Below are positions 47,536 to 57,991 of a DNA stretch of 64,000 nt, piece by piece. The position numbers and the translations under genes were made by a program. Numbering within the stretch: the stretch's first letter is position 1; the number at the start of each line of letters is the position of its first letter. The notes under the pieces are model-generated. The model saw only the letters and a list, made by a program, of their open reading frames with translations. It was not told the DNA's origin and made no database searches. The stretch is taken from positions 1,732 through 65,731 of the forward strand of contig CAYREQ010000001.1 of the NCBI GenBank assembly GCA_964423445.1, given 5' to 3'. Source of the DNA: an uncultured Candidatus Saccharibacteria bacterium (lineage in GTDB: Bacteria > Patescibacteriota > Minisyncoccia > Phycocordibacterales > UBA9973).

Positions 47536-48642
47536 CTATACCTTTATTTTTTTTCTTAGCATGTTCAAGGATTGCCCAGCTGCACATCCACCACACTTTG
47601 CACATCCAGATTTTATTTCTGACATGCGAAGATTTAATCCTGTTCGCAACATTTCTTTTTGTAGAAAGTCTTGTACGCGAGCAAAAATAAAAGGGTCAGT
47701 CTGGTATCGCATATAAGCTGGTGGTCTGATTGGTATCGGGTCTGGTATCACATCCATAGCGATCATTTTCTCTATGGCTTTGTTTGTATAATATTCGTCT
47801 TCTAATCCGACGATGATATTACTTATAACATTACCTACTCCGAATATAGACACAGCGTAGGGAAGTACATACCAATAGACTTCATTTATGAGTTCTATTT
47901 TTCCTGGTATATGGGAGCGTTGCGCTTGGGGACTATAGCAGTCCAGAGGAACCATCCATGTATCTACTCCAGCATTTTTTATTTTATCTATAATTAAAGC
48001 TGAAGCTGGCTGTGATTCAAGAGCAAGAGGAAGTAAAGGGAAAACCTTTTTAATTTTTGCCAATGATTCGCAGACATTTTCAAATACAGGAAGTGTCATA
48101 AGTGGAGTCGTAAAAGTAAGTACATAATTTTTACGATATCCAGTTATTATTTCAAGTGCCTCGATTATTTCTTCAGTTGTTCTGTTTAAATTTTCCATAC
48201 CTCCTGTCATTTGACAAAAGCTACAGGCGTTTCCAGCATCAAATAAAGAGCATCTAGTACCCCCGATTATTCCAACTAGATTATTTCCGGTATGTTTCTG
48301 TAGTATTTCAGATACATATCGTCCACTCGTGAGTTTTTTCATTGCCCACTCTTCTGCTTGAAATGTTTTCACGGTAGCTATTGTTTTACCGTTAAAATCA
48401 ATTTCATAACTATCTAGCCCTTCTCCTTTTATCAAGCAAAGAGGGGAAGATTGATTGATGCGGATATTTACATTTCGAGAAAGACTTGTGAGCTCACTTA
48501 CATCCTTTACACTTGCATGTAAGCCATATCCTAGCCCTCCTCGTTTTTGCTGGTGTGGATTTTGTGCGTTTAATATTACATAAAGCAACACAGGATCAAC
48601 TCGGACTCCTACACATACTAAGTACGGGAATAGATTATTCAT
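47536..48642 (-). CDS. putative Fe-S enzyme, radical-SAM-like with non-canonical Cys spacing (Cx8Cx2C) and a C-terminal CxxCxxC motif
   Basis: GIIGGTRCSLFDAGNACSFCQMTGG and C-terminal SGCAKCGGCAAG; TIM-barrel-like length. The family is unresolved. Confidence 0.35.
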   Translation of the reverse strand: MNNLFPYLVCVGVRVDPVLLYVILNAQNPHQQKRGGLGYGLHASVKDVSELTSLSRNVNIRINQSSPLCLIKGEGLDSYEIDFNGKTIATVKTFQAEEWAMKKLTSGRYVSEILQKHTGNNLVGIIGGTRCSLFDAGNACSFCQMTGGMENLNRTTEEIIEALEIITGYRKNYVLTFTTPLMTLPVFENVCESLAKIKKVFPLLPLALESQPASALIIDKIKNAGVDTWMVPLDCYSPQAQRSHIPGKIELINEVYWYVLPYAVSIFGVGNVISNIIVGLEDEYYTNKAIEKMIAMDVIPDPIPIRPPAYMRYQTDPFIFARVQDFLQKEMLRTGLNLRMSEIKSGCAKCGGCAAGQSLNMLRKKIKV

Positions 48643-48755
48643 AACTTTCTCCTATTTTAAAGAACAAATATTGTCGTTTTGTTTTGGGTAGACAAAGAAA
48701 AACCCCTTCCTAGAAACTTAGGAAGGGGATGTTTTCAAAAATTAATTTATGTAAA

Positions 48756-49151
48756 TTACGAGCTCAAAGACAACCCTTTCCTAAGTTTGGATGGGTTGTG
48801 GTGGTTTGATATACGAGACAATACGAGCCGATATCCGCCGAGTGAACCTTTTAACCATTTTGCTATGCGGGCAATAGTCGCAGACGAGAGACCAGTGTTT
48901 TCACTGATGGTATTGTATTGTATGTCTTTTGAGAGCAGGGAAGCTGCTTCGAGCCTGTTTGCAAATTCTTTTATTTCTAGTTCAGTCATGACATCTCGCA
49001 AGAAAGATTGCATCTCTTCTTTATTTTTCAAAGACAAAAAAGCTTGCACCAATTGTTGGTTTTTCTTTGTATTCCAATCTATCTTTGTGCCGATACCTTG
49101 GATCAGTTTTACTGTATCTATATTTGTATTTTTATTCATTCCTTTACTCAT
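48756..49151 (-). CDS. TrpR-like / YerC-YecD family DNA-binding protein
   Basis: FLRDVMTELEIKEFANRLEAASLL...ISENTGLSSATIARIAKWLK matches the Trp_repressor-fold HTH. The overlapping plus-strand ORF 48679-49164 is rejected. Confidence 0.65.
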   Translation of the reverse strand: MSKGMNKNTNIDTVKLIQGIGTKIDWNTKKNQQLVQAFLSLKNKEEMQSFLRDVMTELEIKEFANRLEAASLLSKDIQYNTISENTGLSSATIARIAKWLKGSLGGYRLVLSRISNHHNPSKLRKGLSLSS

Positions 49152-49196
49152 GACGTCACTTTAGCAGACTAAAGTACTTTAGTCAACTAAAGTGAC
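49151..49196. promoter_or_regulatory. composite palindromic operator TGACGTCACTTTAG-CA-GACTAAAGTACTTTAGTC-AA-CTAAAGTGAC, directly upstream of the YerC-like gene
   Basis: Four ACTTTAG/CTAAAGT half-sites in mirror symmetry, seen in the sequence; lies between the regulator and the divergent small ORF. Confidence 0.55.
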
Positions 49197-49358
49197 GGGT
49201 AGGGGTGTGGAAAACTTTAGCTGAGTAAAGTAGAGATATGGAGTAGAGGGGTAGGAGCGTGGAGGCATGCTTGACTTTTTGCTTTTTGTATGATATTTTA
49301 TTTTTGGATATATGCTCGTGGTATTTCCAAATTTAATTAACTTGGAGACAAAAAAACA

Positions 49359-49496
49359 ATGAAAAGACCAATCTTGTTTGGTTTACTTTTAGATGAAGAT
49401 GGCAACATTTTGACGACCGCGGCCACGACGACGGCAGGCGATCCGAATTTTAACATCAGCAACGATTTCGGCGGCGGCGTCGGCACCGGTGCGTAA
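49359..49496 (+). CDS. candidate small peptide (45 aa), with an atypically GC-rich 3' half
   Basis: GGAGA ribosome-binding site; translation MKRPILFGLLLDEDGNILTTAATTTAGDPNFNISNDFGGGVGTGA; could equally be part of a structured RNA. Confidence 0.35.
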   Translation: MKRPILFGLLLDEDGNILTTAATTTAGDPNFNISNDFGGGVGTGA

Positions 49497-49614
49497 CTAT
49501 CGCCGATCTCCGGCGAAACAAGGGAGGGGAGGAAAGCCTCCCCCGACAATCAAAAGCCATTGAGGCAATTCAACGAATTAGCTTTAATGGCTTTTTCTAT
49601 TTGTGTATAAAAAT

Positions 49615-49651
49615 AAAACCCTCGGAATTTTCTTTGAAAATTCCGAGGGTT
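49615..49651. terminator. perfect 13-bp hairpin ccctcggaatttt-ctttg-aaaattccgaggg, bidirectional
   Basis: One of five consecutive hairpins between 49501 and 49683. Confidence 0.6.
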
Positions 49652-49673
49652 GATTTGTAAGTAGCTATGATGG

Positions 49674-49892
49674 CTACTTTTTACTTGGAGCTTCTACGAG
49701 GGTAGTACGCTTTATCTTTACACAAGGATGGTACCAAGAACCATCAGGCCTTTTATAAATGACGTCATTACCCTTTGTCGCCCTGCATCCGCAAGGCAAC
49801 GTAGGAATACGTGATGAGACCGTCATCTCATCTCGCGTCTTGGTTCTACGTGCAAACCAAGCTTCGAAAGACAATTTTTCATTCATAGTCAT
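49674..49892 (-). CDS. small Cys-containing hypothetical protein (72 aa, CGC...HPC)
   Basis: Strong AAGGAG ribosome-binding site; this ORF is moderately GC-rich. Confidence 0.5.
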   Translation of the reverse strand: MTMNEKLSFEAWFARRTKTRDEMTVSSRIPTLPCGCRATKGNDVIYKRPDGSWYHPCVKIKRTTLVEAPSKK

Positions 49893-50130
49893 ATCTCCTT
49901 AAAGAACAAAATACCAGCCTTTTTAAAAGACTGGTATTTGAGTTGTGTTTATTGAATAGTTTATATTTACAGCACAAAAATCAGCCTTCTAATTTTGTTT
50001 CGAAAGCTAAATACATAACTGTTTAAATTTTTCGCTGTTTTTACCATATATTTACATTAACAAAATGTATAAGTATTTGCAATTTGTTACACTTTCTTTT
50101 AAAAACTAGCAGTAAAAATTCCTTAATAAT

Positions 50131-50916
50131 TTATACAAGTAGAGAGTTTATGTGGTCTATAAGATTTTGGTATTCTTTTTTATAAGCAGGAACAAGTATT
50201 TTTTCTGGAGTAGGCCTGAAAGTTAAGCCTTTTTCAAAAGGGTTTATATCTTCCCCGTCACTATCTGCCCAAAAAAGCTTAATTATGTTTTTCATCATTA
50301 TCTTTGCCGAGTCTTCATTTAAGGGTCTATTTATACAATATCGAAAAGAACCCAAAACAATATCCATTGCAGAACTTAAATTAGATGCGTTATCACATGT
50401 TGAGGAAAATAATTTTATTTTAGTTAATTCTACGTTCCTATCTTTTACTACTAGTCCAGTTGTAAATTTTTCAGAAAGGAATTTATATTCTCCAATATCA
50501 GATAATCTGTCCACGAATACCATGCCAGTAGAATTTTTTTGTGTTAGGTAGTGATTAAATTTACCAACAATATGATCAGCTCCCCACTTTACTGTTTTAT
50601 TTATTCCCTGGCTACTAGCTATCTTATGTAAAACAACATACGCTAAAAATTTACACTCATTTTCTATGCATAAATTAATAATTTTACTTTTTATTTTTGC
50701 AAAGTCAGTAGTACTGATATTTTTTGGTCTAGTATTTGAGTCAAATTTTAAACTATCAGTTGAATTAAAATTGTATTCTTTTCTAATTTTTTTTATTTCA
50801 TCATCAATAATATCTATTTTTTCTAGGGGTATGATCAAACCACCATATGCAAAAAACTTTATTCCAAGATTTTCTTGTTCAGTTAGGTTTGTTTCATCAG
50901 TAAAAAGTAAATACAT
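50131..50916 (-). CDS. hypothetical protein, DUF3800-like (N-terminal LLFTDETNL acidic motif)
   Basis: 261 aa; AT-rich gene after a 238-bp AT-rich spacer. The family assignment is tentative, from memory. Confidence 0.35.
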   Translation of the reverse strand: MYLLFTDETNLTEQENLGIKFFAYGGLIIPLEKIDIIDDEIKKIRKEYNFNSTDSLKFDSNTRPKNISTTDFAKIKSKIINLCIENECKFLAYVVLHKIASSQGINKTVKWGADHIVGKFNHYLTQKNSTGMVFVDRLSDIGEYKFLSEKFTTGLVVKDRNVELTKIKLFSSTCDNASNLSSAMDIVLGSFRYCINRPLNEDSAKIMMKNIIKLFWADSDGEDINPFEKGLTFRPTPEKILVPAYKKEYQNLIDHINSLLV

Positions 50917-57194: not shown

Positions 57195-57410
57195 ATGGCA
57201 AACACGGGAGAAGATGGCTCAATCTCTGAGCCTTTGGATTCAACTTTGGAACTCTCACCAACGGGTGACGAGTCGGCACTGGACATTGATTCAGGCGTTT
57301 TCAAAAAGTTTGATGGCAACCCGGCAAAACCGGACCTGCCATCAGTAGAACAGCGGGCTGCTTTTCATGCTCGTGGAGGCTGGCGACCATCAGGTGGCCG
57401 TAAAAAATAG
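57195..57410 (+). CDS. small hypothetical protein (acidic N-terminus, basic C-terminus), GC-rich
   Basis: Strong GGAGG ribosome-binding site; 71 aa; first gene of a compositionally distinct three-gene operon. Confidence 0.45.
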   Translation: MANTGEDGSISEPLDSTLELSPTGDESALDIDSGVFKKFDGNPAKPDLPSVEQRAAFHARGGWRPSGGRKK

Positions 57411-57421
57411 GAGGAGATGTA

Positions 57422-57778
57422 ATGCCGGAACCTGTCTTGTCGGCTTACCTACGAAAGGCTGGGAATATTGCAATTCTTGACCTTTCTGGGAAGATAACCA
57501 TGGGAGAAGGAGCTGTACGTCTCCGCGTCGAAGTCCGGAGACTTTTAAACGAGGGCTGGAATAAAATCTTGCTTAATTTTGAGCAAGTAAAGTCTGTCGA
57601 CCTTTCTGGTGTTGGCGAAATAAAACTTTGCATTAACTGTGCCGAAAAAGAAGGCGGTGAAATGAAAGGTGAATTTGCTGTAAACATCAAAGATGTCGGA
57701 GAGCTTACTAGGCTCGTTTCGACGATTGACTGTTTCCGGTCCGAGGCGGAAGCTTTATGCTCTTTTAGTGTAAAATAG
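57422..57778 (+). CDS. STAS-domain protein (anti-sigma-factor antagonist, SpoIIAA-like)
   Basis: ILDLSGKITMGEGAVRLRVEVRRLL...ILLNFEQVKSVDLSGVGEI; AGGAGGAG ribosome-binding site. Confidence 0.7.
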   Translation: MPEPVLSAYLRKAGNIAILDLSGKITMGEGAVRLRVEVRRLLNEGWNKILLNFEQVKSVDLSGVGEIKLCINCAEKEGGEMKGEFAVNIKDVGELTRLVSTIDCFRSEAEALCSFSVK

Positions 57779-57787
57779 GGGAAAAAA

Positions 57788-57991
57788 ATGACAAAACGTG
57801 ATAAGCAGTTGCGCAAGCAACGCAGGGCGTATAAAAAACGCTTGAAGGAAAGGATGAAAAATGGCGAAGGCAAAGGCCCGAGCCAGACGCCTTCGCCTTA
57901 CGGCTATAGTCGTAAGGAAGGTCGAGGGCAATCCTCCGCAGGCGATGACTACCGTGGTAGCTGGCGTGCCGGTAGATACGGAGTGTTCTAA
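57788..57991 (+). CDS. small highly basic hypothetical protein (67 aa, RK-rich)
   Basis: Ribosome-binding site GGGGAAAAAA; GC-rich; followed by a strong terminator. Confidence 0.45.
   Translation: MTKRDKQLRKQRRAYKKRLKERMKNGEGKGPSQTPSPYGYSRKEGRGQSSAGDDYRGSWRAGRYGVF

Follow-up and report, generated by a model that had tools for sequence, protein, structure and literature searches.

Here, we explored the divergently oriented genes at 48756-49151 and 49359-49496, together with their surroundings, in a stretch of 64,000 nucleotides (hereafter, the window) of contig CAYREQ010000001.1 from an uncultured Candidatus Saccharibacteria bacterium (assembly GCA_964423445.1). Our analysis indicates that this region probably consists of two mutually independent, back-to-back transcription units, namely, an autorepressed gene of the hisR/yerC type and a lineage-restricted gene for a small protein. 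The locus is largely ordinary, the GC-rich tail of the small gene being its sole oddity. A preceding sequence-only reading had suggested either a structured non-coding RNA or a modified peptide; the simplest account of what it described is an ordinary transcription unit for a small protein. The main value of the present work lies in a correct annotation of the locus and in the removal of the suggested link to a nearby radical-SAM gene. The window has a GC content of 36%, and the best matches of its proteins are to Candidatus Paceibacterota/Nomurabacteria (Patescibacteria). Patescibacteria possess very few transcription factors and are generally devoid of amino-acid biosynthesis. A repressor of the HisR type, with 70-80% identity among the Paceibacterota/Nomurabacteria-like loci sampled, offers a concrete, testable regulatory module in these hard-to-culture organisms.

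The HisR-type regulator and its operator

The gene at 48756-49151, described by the sequence-only reading as TrpR/YerC-like, encodes a protein that indeed scores above the cutoffs of both PF01371 (Trp_repressor; 2.3e-18, 66.5 bits against a cutoff of 27) and TIGR02531 (yecD_yerC; 2.1e-19, 69.7 bits against 42.2). The equivalog model for the true TrpR, TIGR01321, is not reached (23 bits against a cutoff of 67.25). Among structures in the PDB, the regulator matches 3FRW from R. gnavus (4e-14), to which it is ~38% identical across the whole fold, as well as 3G1C (1e-11) and 3KOR (3e-11). The residues through which the helix-turn-helix of the HisR group contacts DNA (PMC9413887) are kept in the form Y..ISE.TG.S.ATI.R, comprising the Tyr before helix 1 and the Ala-Thr-Ile-x-Arg of the recognition helix, such that Y..ISENTGLSSATIARI of the regulator aligns with Y..ISEKTGASTATISRV of 3FRW and 3G1C; the acidic residues of helix 2 are mostly kept, with one Glu replaced by Arg (FED to LRD). 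Judged by these matches, the regulator is a member of the HisR/YerC-YecD subfamily of the TrpR family. It shares with the known HisR proteins (B. subtilis YerC and the R. gnavus and E. eligens proteins 3FRW and 3G1C) the Pfam and TIGRFAM family, the operator palindrome, and the position of the boxes 5′ of its own gene. Unlike HisR proteins, which comprise fewer than 100 residues, the regulator has 131; its homologues, which are 70-80% identical across Paceibacterota, carry a ~28-residue N-terminal extension (MSKGMNKNTNI...) and a C-terminal tail (...SNHHNPSKLRKGLSLSS), both conserved in the clade and both missing from the ~100-residue HisR proteins with solved structures.

Upstream of the regulator, the sequence-only reading had recognized a palindromic operator of four half-sites and likened its symmetry to the CTAG-containing one of TrpR-family operators. 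The palindrome is real, its arms (49154-49175 and 49176-49197) being 91% complementary, but the layout had to be corrected to three 18-bp boxes spread over 49158-49231, each a perfect ACTTTA-N6-TAAAGT (Table 1). No fourth perfect copy exists in the 64-kb window, all three being confined to one intergenic region, and with at most one mismatch allowed, the window contains 4 matches against a shuffle mean of 0.78. The likeness to CTAG-type operators did not hold up: the motif instead equals the HisR consensus cacTTTAnnnnnnTAAAgtg, a 20-bp palindrome common to Firmicutes, Actinobacteria, and Synergistetes (PMC9413887), and the 20-bp forms of the boxes, cACTTTAgcagacTAAAGTa, tACTTTAgtcaacTAAAGTg, and aACTTTAgctgagTAAAGTa, all fit the published cacTTTA-N6-TAAAgtg. 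In the same survey, from which the phylum Patescibacteria is absent, the yerC of B. subtilis is HisR, a histidine repressor of the TrpR family, and HisR sites are located 5′ of hisR in 183 genomes, implying autoregulation (PMC9413887). The published sites are individual 20-bp palindromes (PMC9413887), whereas here two boxes abut and are joined by a third. The likeness to E. coli TrpR extends to the fold family, to palindromic operators that overlap the promoter, and to repression of the own gene (trp, aroH, and trpR operators). By contrast, the operator described here is based on TTTA/TAAA and that of E. coli TrpR on GNACT/CTAG; no CTAG core is present in the window operator, and proteins of the HisR group do not conserve the residues that contact tryptophan (PMC9413887).

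A scan of species-representative genomes for relatives of the regulator yielded 48 loci with 44-78% identity, 47 of them informative for operator counts; in 33, the N-terminus of the regulator could be mapped, which is the basis of the counts of promoter geometry. The regulator promoter of the window, TTGACT-17-TAAAGT, is of the sigma-70 type and sits wholly within the two abutting boxes, with the ATG 6 nt past the -10 element. The same promoter lies inside abutting boxes in 27 of the 33 mapped loci, with the ATG 6-7 nt past the -10 in 26. Perfect boxes, one or two, are found immediately 5′ of the regulator start in ~44 of the 47 loci, so that the operator, the absence of which from orthologous loci would have spoken against it, is conserved there, and Patescibacteria loci with only 44-53% regulator identity display a looser yet recognizable box. 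Boxes laid over both promoter hexamers would constitute the classic layout for autorepression through promoter occlusion, and autorepression is indicated because this arrangement recurs in most of the 47 related loci. Following this geometry and the family precedent, HisR-type dimers occupying boxes 1 and 2 next to each other would obstruct RNA polymerase and thereby set the level of the regulator itself. Tandem binding of TrpR dimers is known. The regulator mRNA is probably leaderless. The regulator with its operator is a new instance, at the level of a phylum, of the published HisR autoregulation system. Four of the related loci (L002, L010, L015, and L020) have, in place of the leaderless layout, a ~70-nt leader inserted between the operator and the regulator ATG, which holds a conserved hairpin (cttgtcccgta...tacgggacag) and could be a regulatory element of the 5′ untranslated region (UTR).

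The regulator locus departs from published HisR loci in its apparently leaderless promoter, in the lack of a nearby gene for histidine biosynthesis or transport, and in a DnaA-box-like 9-mer that accompanies the boxes. The pattern TT[AT]TCC[AC]CA stands at a conserved position and in constant orientation in 39 of 47 loci, and 27 of 47 have the exact DnaA-box consensus TTATCCACA, compared with 5 other copies in the 344 kb of DNA flanking the related loci that served as background. The 9-mer lies ~45-60 nt upstream of the regulator start across L001-L048, and the spacer between it and the first box measures 11-12 nt in 29 loci. Such conservation suggests that the 9-mer may act as a second conserved input at the regulator promoter across the Paceibacterota/Nomurabacteria-like loci sampled; box 3 and the 9-mer, both just upstream, would probably modulate this promoter. 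A literature search retrieved no work that ties this DnaA-box motif to Patescibacteria. The intergenic region also contains an imperfect local duplication (repeat family D2) of the module formed by a box plus TCCAC segment, the 9-mer segment included.

By analogy with HisR, histidine would be the co-repressor of the regulator. No HisR boxes were found at genes for histidine biosynthesis (his) or uptake (hisXYZ, yuiF) in the window and the related loci examined, and the module invites one to ask which genes a "histidine repressor" targets in Patescibacteria. Single perfect boxes are located immediately 5′ of a SLOG/LOG-like gene (L025, 4373-4390), a PNP_UDP_1 nucleoside phosphorylase gene (L012, 6012-6029), and a gene for an EamA-flavokinase fusion (L017, 5458-5475), and these three genes are candidate non-histidine targets; the ATG of the SLOG/LOG-like gene is 6 nt past the box, a spacing equal to that of hisR. 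Eight loci contain extra tandem double boxes at a distance of 1-3 kb from the regulator (L020, 3243-3278; L011, 7291-7326; L022, 6074-6109; L029, 7226-7262; L048, 6106-6141; L015, 5032-5067; L006, 7371-7406; L010, 6161-6196). In L020, L011, and L022, for which ORFs (open reading frames) were listed, these double boxes fall in convergent gaps, 3′ of Pterin_4a or of a Peptidase_S51–Pterin_4a pair, and no convincing leaderless ORF was found after the extra tandem boxes of the related loci. Finally, single HisR-type palindromes in L053 (4838-4855) and L002 (4815-4832) have complementary flanks followed by a T-run, thus resembling intrinsic terminators, and could double as a protein site and an RNA hairpin.

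The divergent small-protein gene

The second unit has expression signals of its own. All orthologues of the small gene share the promoter consensus TTGACT, 17 nt, TATYTT; the 5′ UTR spans ~55 nt and includes a stem-loop of which 6 pairs are kept in 6 sequences, with G-C/G-U changes only and zero compensatory ones. A GGAGA motif is located 11 nt upstream of the ATG, bearing out the divergent 45-codon ORF with a ribosome-binding site that the sequence-only reading had proposed. Among the six available sequences (the window and five orthologues), the consensus of the product is M(K/R)RxxLFGLLLD(E/D)NGKPLTTAATTTAGDPN...SSPGGDGGVGF. Over the first 21 codons, hereafter the head, differences per codon position amount to 0.34 / 0.175 / 0.42, with dN/dS of 0.13-0.47 and many synonymous Leu changes, and the DNA-level indels are in frame (6, 3, 3, and 45 nt). 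The conserved ATG appears to be the true start, because a one-base difference in the A-run before it shifts the frame of the upstream alternative starts. The first ~21 codons thus display the substitution pattern of coding sequence, and the small gene is taken to be translated. Conservation of the ORF at the protein level, which had been proposed as a check, is accordingly partial: the N-terminal part is conserved in the five orthologues, and the tail diverges with no codon periodicity. Likewise, of the regulated small peptide envisaged earlier, the small protein gene with its coding head stands, and neither modification of the product nor a fixed link to the regulator is supported.

AlphaFold2 modeling of the peptide reached a mean pLDDT of 63, with a beta-hairpin at residues 6-23 and a disordered tail, a low-confidence result too weak for a fold search; the ~21-residue N-terminal module may, with low confidence, form a beta-hairpin, and the acidic tail is probably disordered. 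When the peptide alignment served as a profile query against 1.84 billion representatives, one true orthologue, P0132, was added. The other matches, large repeat proteins of the DUF11 and RCC1-like kinds, share only a D-x-N-G-x-P-L turn and were judged to be motif-level noise. Because two orthologues adjoin a pilin-like gene, a prepilin-type signal (MKRxxLFG|LLLDE; Gly at -1, acidic residue at +4/+5) was considered and rejected: no hydrophobic segment follows, and the window encodes no pilin homologue. An antisense ORF at 49337-49549 was discarded, too, not being conserved in L049. No similarity to phage or plasmid DNA was found, and a scan of metagenome contigs for the pattern of the terminator arms returned five matches, all unrelated terminators with no peptide homology. 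Like uncharacterized bacterial small proteins of fewer than 60 residues, the gene product is short, lineage-restricted, and without a family, and its gene has a promoter and a terminator of its own; unlike them, the ORF switches sharply from ordinary AT-rich to the rarest GC-rich codons, and its allelic divergence is very high and local.

The relationship between the two units is best judged from the arrangements in relatives. In L054 and L056, the small gene stands beside a type IV pilin-like gene and without a HisR box, whereas L053, with a regulator of 84% identity, encodes a 129-residue membrane protein as the divergent neighbour and lacks the small ORF. Given these arrangements, the small gene appears to be an independent unit that merely abuts the regulator in this sub-lineage, and the two box-less orthologues leave the idea that the regulator must control the ORF unsupported. 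It could still be that the HisR-like regulon includes the small gene in this particular genome, with box 3 acting together with boxes 1 and 2 to repress or loop the divergent promoter. Indeed, box 3 is a perfect core match between both promoters, unchanged in L049 and retained in part in L050 and L055. However, it ends ~40 nt upstream of the -35 element, with no overlap with the promoter, and a third box at the same position relative to the regulator is present also in L009, L017, L027, and L042, including loci with other divergent genes; together with the absence of a box from L054 and L056, this makes membership in the regulon unlikely.

The GC-rich tail

The sequence-only reading had pointed out that the second half of the ORF uses atypical GC-rich codons, and this is borne out in full. 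The last 27 codons have a third-position GC content (GC3) of 0.78, whereas the 14,900 27-codon windows drawn from the 39 genes of the window reach a maximum of 0.63 with a mean of 0.28; the codon-usage score of the tail, too, is below those of all background windows. Its codons are among the rarest of the genome (ACG, 5%; GCG, 6%; AGC, 7%; CCG, 10% of their synonymous sets), and the 100-nt GC peak in the region of the small gene, 0.64, is the maximum of the window. The predicted translation of the tail includes the segment GDPNFNISNDFGGGVGTGA. In all six sequences, the tail retains a GC3 of 0.59-0.80, compared with 0.14-0.43 for the heads. Nevertheless, between the window and L049, in which the adjoining regulators are nearly the same (Table 1), the tails are only 48% identical, as opposed to 95-96% in the flanks. 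The block keeps its composition and not its sequence.

The options for the tail are a translated disordered tail that is decoded slowly, a role at the RNA level, or both. Our guess would be that the GC-rich block serves a nucleic-acid-level role, most likely in transcript stability or slow decoding; as a point against such a role, the GC-rich part of the ORF folds no better than shuffles, with z = -1.5 in the window and -0.3 to -2.3 across orthologues. A stronger version of this idea, in which the small gene is a bipartite element made of a conserved peptide module and a rare-codon block that crosses the stop codon, with selection targeting the nucleic acid, or the speed of decoding, instead of the amino acids, appears quite improbable. 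If true, a bipartite block diversifying between near-identical strains would be in keeping with a sensor coupled to translation or with an mRNA/sRNA of dual function in an episymbiotic Patescibacteria lineage.

Several points weigh against the picture of two ordinary, independent units. Differences in the tail are spread evenly over the codon positions (0.34 / 0.39 / 0.41, without periodicity), with dN/dS of ~0.7-3, and the signs of translation in this part are that its frame is open and that two indels cleanly preserve it. In GC-rich DNA, an uninterrupted frame counts for little as evidence, since here, of the two other frames, one is open as well. The comparisons of the small ORF draw on a single narrow clade, so that the statistics are thin. 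On the side of the regulator, the leaderless start is predicted from spacing, and binding from geometry and family precedent; the effector may be other than histidine, no histidine-related gene being visible, and box 3, given its ~40-nt distance from the -35 element, may let the regulator influence the small gene to some degree in this genome.

The run of the rarest codons of the genome also brings to mind an attenuation leader peptide, such that ribosomes stalling on rare Thr, Ala, and Gly codons would control termination downstream. ACG occurs four times in the tail alongside GCG, hairpins and a terminator lie 3′ of the ORF, and we take the peptide to be loosely like E. coli thrL, with its MKR start, Thr run, and Gly/Ala-rich end. 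However, there is no co-oriented gene past the terminator to be controlled in the window, L049, L054, or L056, the next gene being convergent; no alternative antiterminator pairing was recovered, and the specific codons that make up the rare-codon run are not conserved. This scenario is very unlikely.

The local character of the divergence between the window and L049 is also what would be expected if the tail were the target of a diversity-generating retroelement or another form of directed hypermutation, with the GC-rich hairpin H2, which has a 4-nt loop and lies just downstream of the tail, as the recognition structure. The differences between L054 and L055 are mostly A/G changes at first and second codon positions, as such a process would predict. 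Yet a blastn search of 49381-49560 against the 64-kb window matches only itself, with no copy resembling a template repeat; the differences include indels and are not restricted to adenine-templated sites; the ORF is far below the size of known target proteins; and no reverse transcriptase is among the scanned proteins, although no search aimed at reverse transcriptase was made. We consider directed diversification extremely improbable.

A second cluster of GC-rich islands (57195-57991, up to 0.63 GC), just upstream of a tRNA, equals the small-gene tail in its atypical composition. Within it are three small ORFs (71, 118, and 67 residues), one of them very basic, and it has no Rfam match.

Hairpins, terminators, and neighbouring genes

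The five consecutive hairpins of the sequence-only reading are all present, but they do not form one element, being split between two convergent genes: H1-H3 lie in the 3′ UTR of the small gene, and H4 and H5 belong to a convergent 72-residue ORF (Table 1). The reported GGGGAGG/CCTCCCC stem is found as described (H2) and resembles a Shine-Dalgarno/anti-Shine-Dalgarno pairing; the hairpin said to have a perfect 13-bp stem exists as well, with a stem of 16 bp (H4). H3 shows one compensatory pair, A-U to U-A, across orthologues. H4 is attributed to the 72-residue gene as its terminator, because it is found only together with that 72/73-residue gene (L049 and L054), L055 and L056 having no such hairpin. 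In common with the intrinsic terminators of convergent genes, H3, H4, and the hairpin at 48703-48728 have GC-containing stems and a T-run on the apt strand, each at the end of an ORF; H3 differs from typical intrinsic terminators in its unusually long stem (~20 bp) with an internal loop, and in being preceded by the separate conserved GC hairpin H2. The 3′ UTR of the small gene would, by its layout, run through one variable (H1) and one conserved (H2) GC hairpin into a long intrinsic terminator, and the hairpin at 48703-48728 would end the regulator unit ahead of the radical-SAM gene.

Table 1. Features of the regulator and small-gene region (window coordinates) and orthologues of the small gene
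Feature	Position	Strand	Remarks
Regulator terminator	48703-48728		GC-rich hairpin with T-runs on both strands; CCCCTTCCTAAGTTTCTAGGAAGGGG then TTTTTCTTTG on the minus strand
HisR/YerC/YecD-type TrpR-family regulator, 131 aa	48756-49151	minus	Pfam, TIGRFAM, and PDB matches
HisR box 1, promoter-proximal	49158-49175		ACTTTAGCAGACTAAAGT; holds regulator -10 TAAAGT (49163-49158, minus); kept in related loci
HisR box 2	49176-49193		ACTTTAGTCAACTAAAGT; holds regulator -35 TTGACT (49186-49181, minus)
DnaA-box-like 9-mer	49206-49214	minus	TTTTCCACA; fits TTWTNCACA; ~12 nt upstream of box 2 (regulator orientation)
HisR box 3	49214-49231		ACTTTAGCTGAGTAAAGT; upstream of the DnaA-like box; ~40 nt upstream of small-gene -35
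Degenerate copy (83%) of G-rich segment 49194-49211	49246-49263		Repeat family D2
Small-gene promoter	49271-49299	plus	TTGACT, 17 nt, TATTTT, with TG upstream of -10; conserved in L049, L050, L054, L055, L056
5′-UTR stem-loop	49306-49328	plus	GGATAT...ATTTCC, at or near the mRNA 5′ end; kept in 6 sequences
Small protein gene, 45 aa	49359-49496	plus	Conserved N-terminal module MKRxxLFGLLLDxxGxxLTTA and variable acidic Gly/Asp/Thr-rich tail
GC-rich block	49413-49545	plus	~60% GC against 36% in the genome; starts at codon 19, runs over the stop codon, and reaches H2; rare codons in the coding part
H1	49500-49516	plus	TCGCCG/CGGCGA; position not conserved, orthologues have other short GC palindromes
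H2	49526-49543	plus	GGGGAGG/CCTCCCC, 4-nt loop; conserved in all five full-length orthologues
H3, small-gene intrinsic terminator	49552-49605 (stem 49552-49595 and T-run)	plus	Long hairpin then TTTTTCTATTT; conserved in 5/5
H4, terminator of the convergent 72-aa gene	49617-49651 (49617-49632 / 49636-49651)	minus	Perfect 16-bp stem then TTTTATTTTTAT
H5	49659-49679		Short hairpin; overlaps the stop codon of the 72-aa gene (49674-49676)
Convergent 72-aa ORF	49674-49892	minus	CxC...HPC motif; not part of the small-gene unit
Orthologue L049 / P0121			47 aa; adjoining regulator 98% identical
Orthologue L050			Partial; regulator 90% identical
Orthologue L055 / P0123			60 aa as called; conserved ATG yields a shorter product
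Orthologue L054 / P0124			53 aa
Orthologue L056 / P0132			51 aa

The notion that the ORF and the hairpins together form a structured non-coding or dual-function RNA, in which the GC-rich block is functional and the open frame incidental, draws on genuine peculiarities of this sequence. In the same sequence pairs, synonymous sites of the tail change less than those of the head (pS of 0.05-0.25 against 0.3-0.7); beyond the missing codon periodicity and the second open frame mentioned above, the GC-rich block runs over the stop codon into the 3′ UTR, and a comparison of the window with L049 shows higher conservation in the UTRs than in the coding part. The 401-nt region as a whole also folds strongly (z = -7.5), but this is caused by the terminator-type hairpins, and the predicted fold of the GC-rich part, which behaves like shuffled sequence, differs between orthologues. 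Searches against Rfam 15, run at E = 10 on 48600-50200 and at the gathering threshold on the whole window, provided no family for it: the best scores within 49300-49700 were 20-27 bits against gathering thresholds of 49-63, with all weak matches on the terminator hairpins, and the whole window yielded two tRNAs only. RNAalifold recovers nothing beyond H2 and the terminator, and in the head, the signature of coding is clear, the ATG being conserved and the indels being in frame. One structured non-coding RNA is therefore not what the data describe, and we regard a dual-function or non-coding reading as distinctly unlikely, keeping to a small-protein gene followed by a terminator.

The radical-SAM gene (47536-48642; NF045502 variant_rSAM, 7.6e-27, below the cutoff) lies ~700 nt from the small ORF, and the sequence-only reading had considered a link between this Fe-S enzyme and maturation of the peptide. 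In such a scenario, the ORF would encode the precursor of a ribosomally synthesized and post-translationally modified peptide, matured by the variant radical-SAM enzyme, with the HisR-like protein as the regulator of the cluster. The layout of the product is leader-like, in that the N-terminal part is conserved and the C-terminal part is variable and rich in Thr and Gly, and the enzyme is close by. However, its gene is past the regulator and behind a terminator, and it was not found in L050, L053, L054, L055, or L056, which carry the small ORF or a close regulator homologue: it is absent beside the regulator in L050 and L053 and from the contigs of L054 and L056 that carry the small gene. Because of this separation and lack of co-occurrence in relatives, the maturation idea is without support. 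Furthermore, the small gene has no other conserved maturase next to it, and the peptide contains no Cys. The precursor reading is thus largely refuted by the lack of co-occurrence, and we consider it highly improbable.

The convergent ORF, of 72-75 residues and with its CxC...HPC motif, is conserved in L049 (1117-1344) and L054 (1458-1679). It has no family match, and its product is possibly a small zinc-binding protein.

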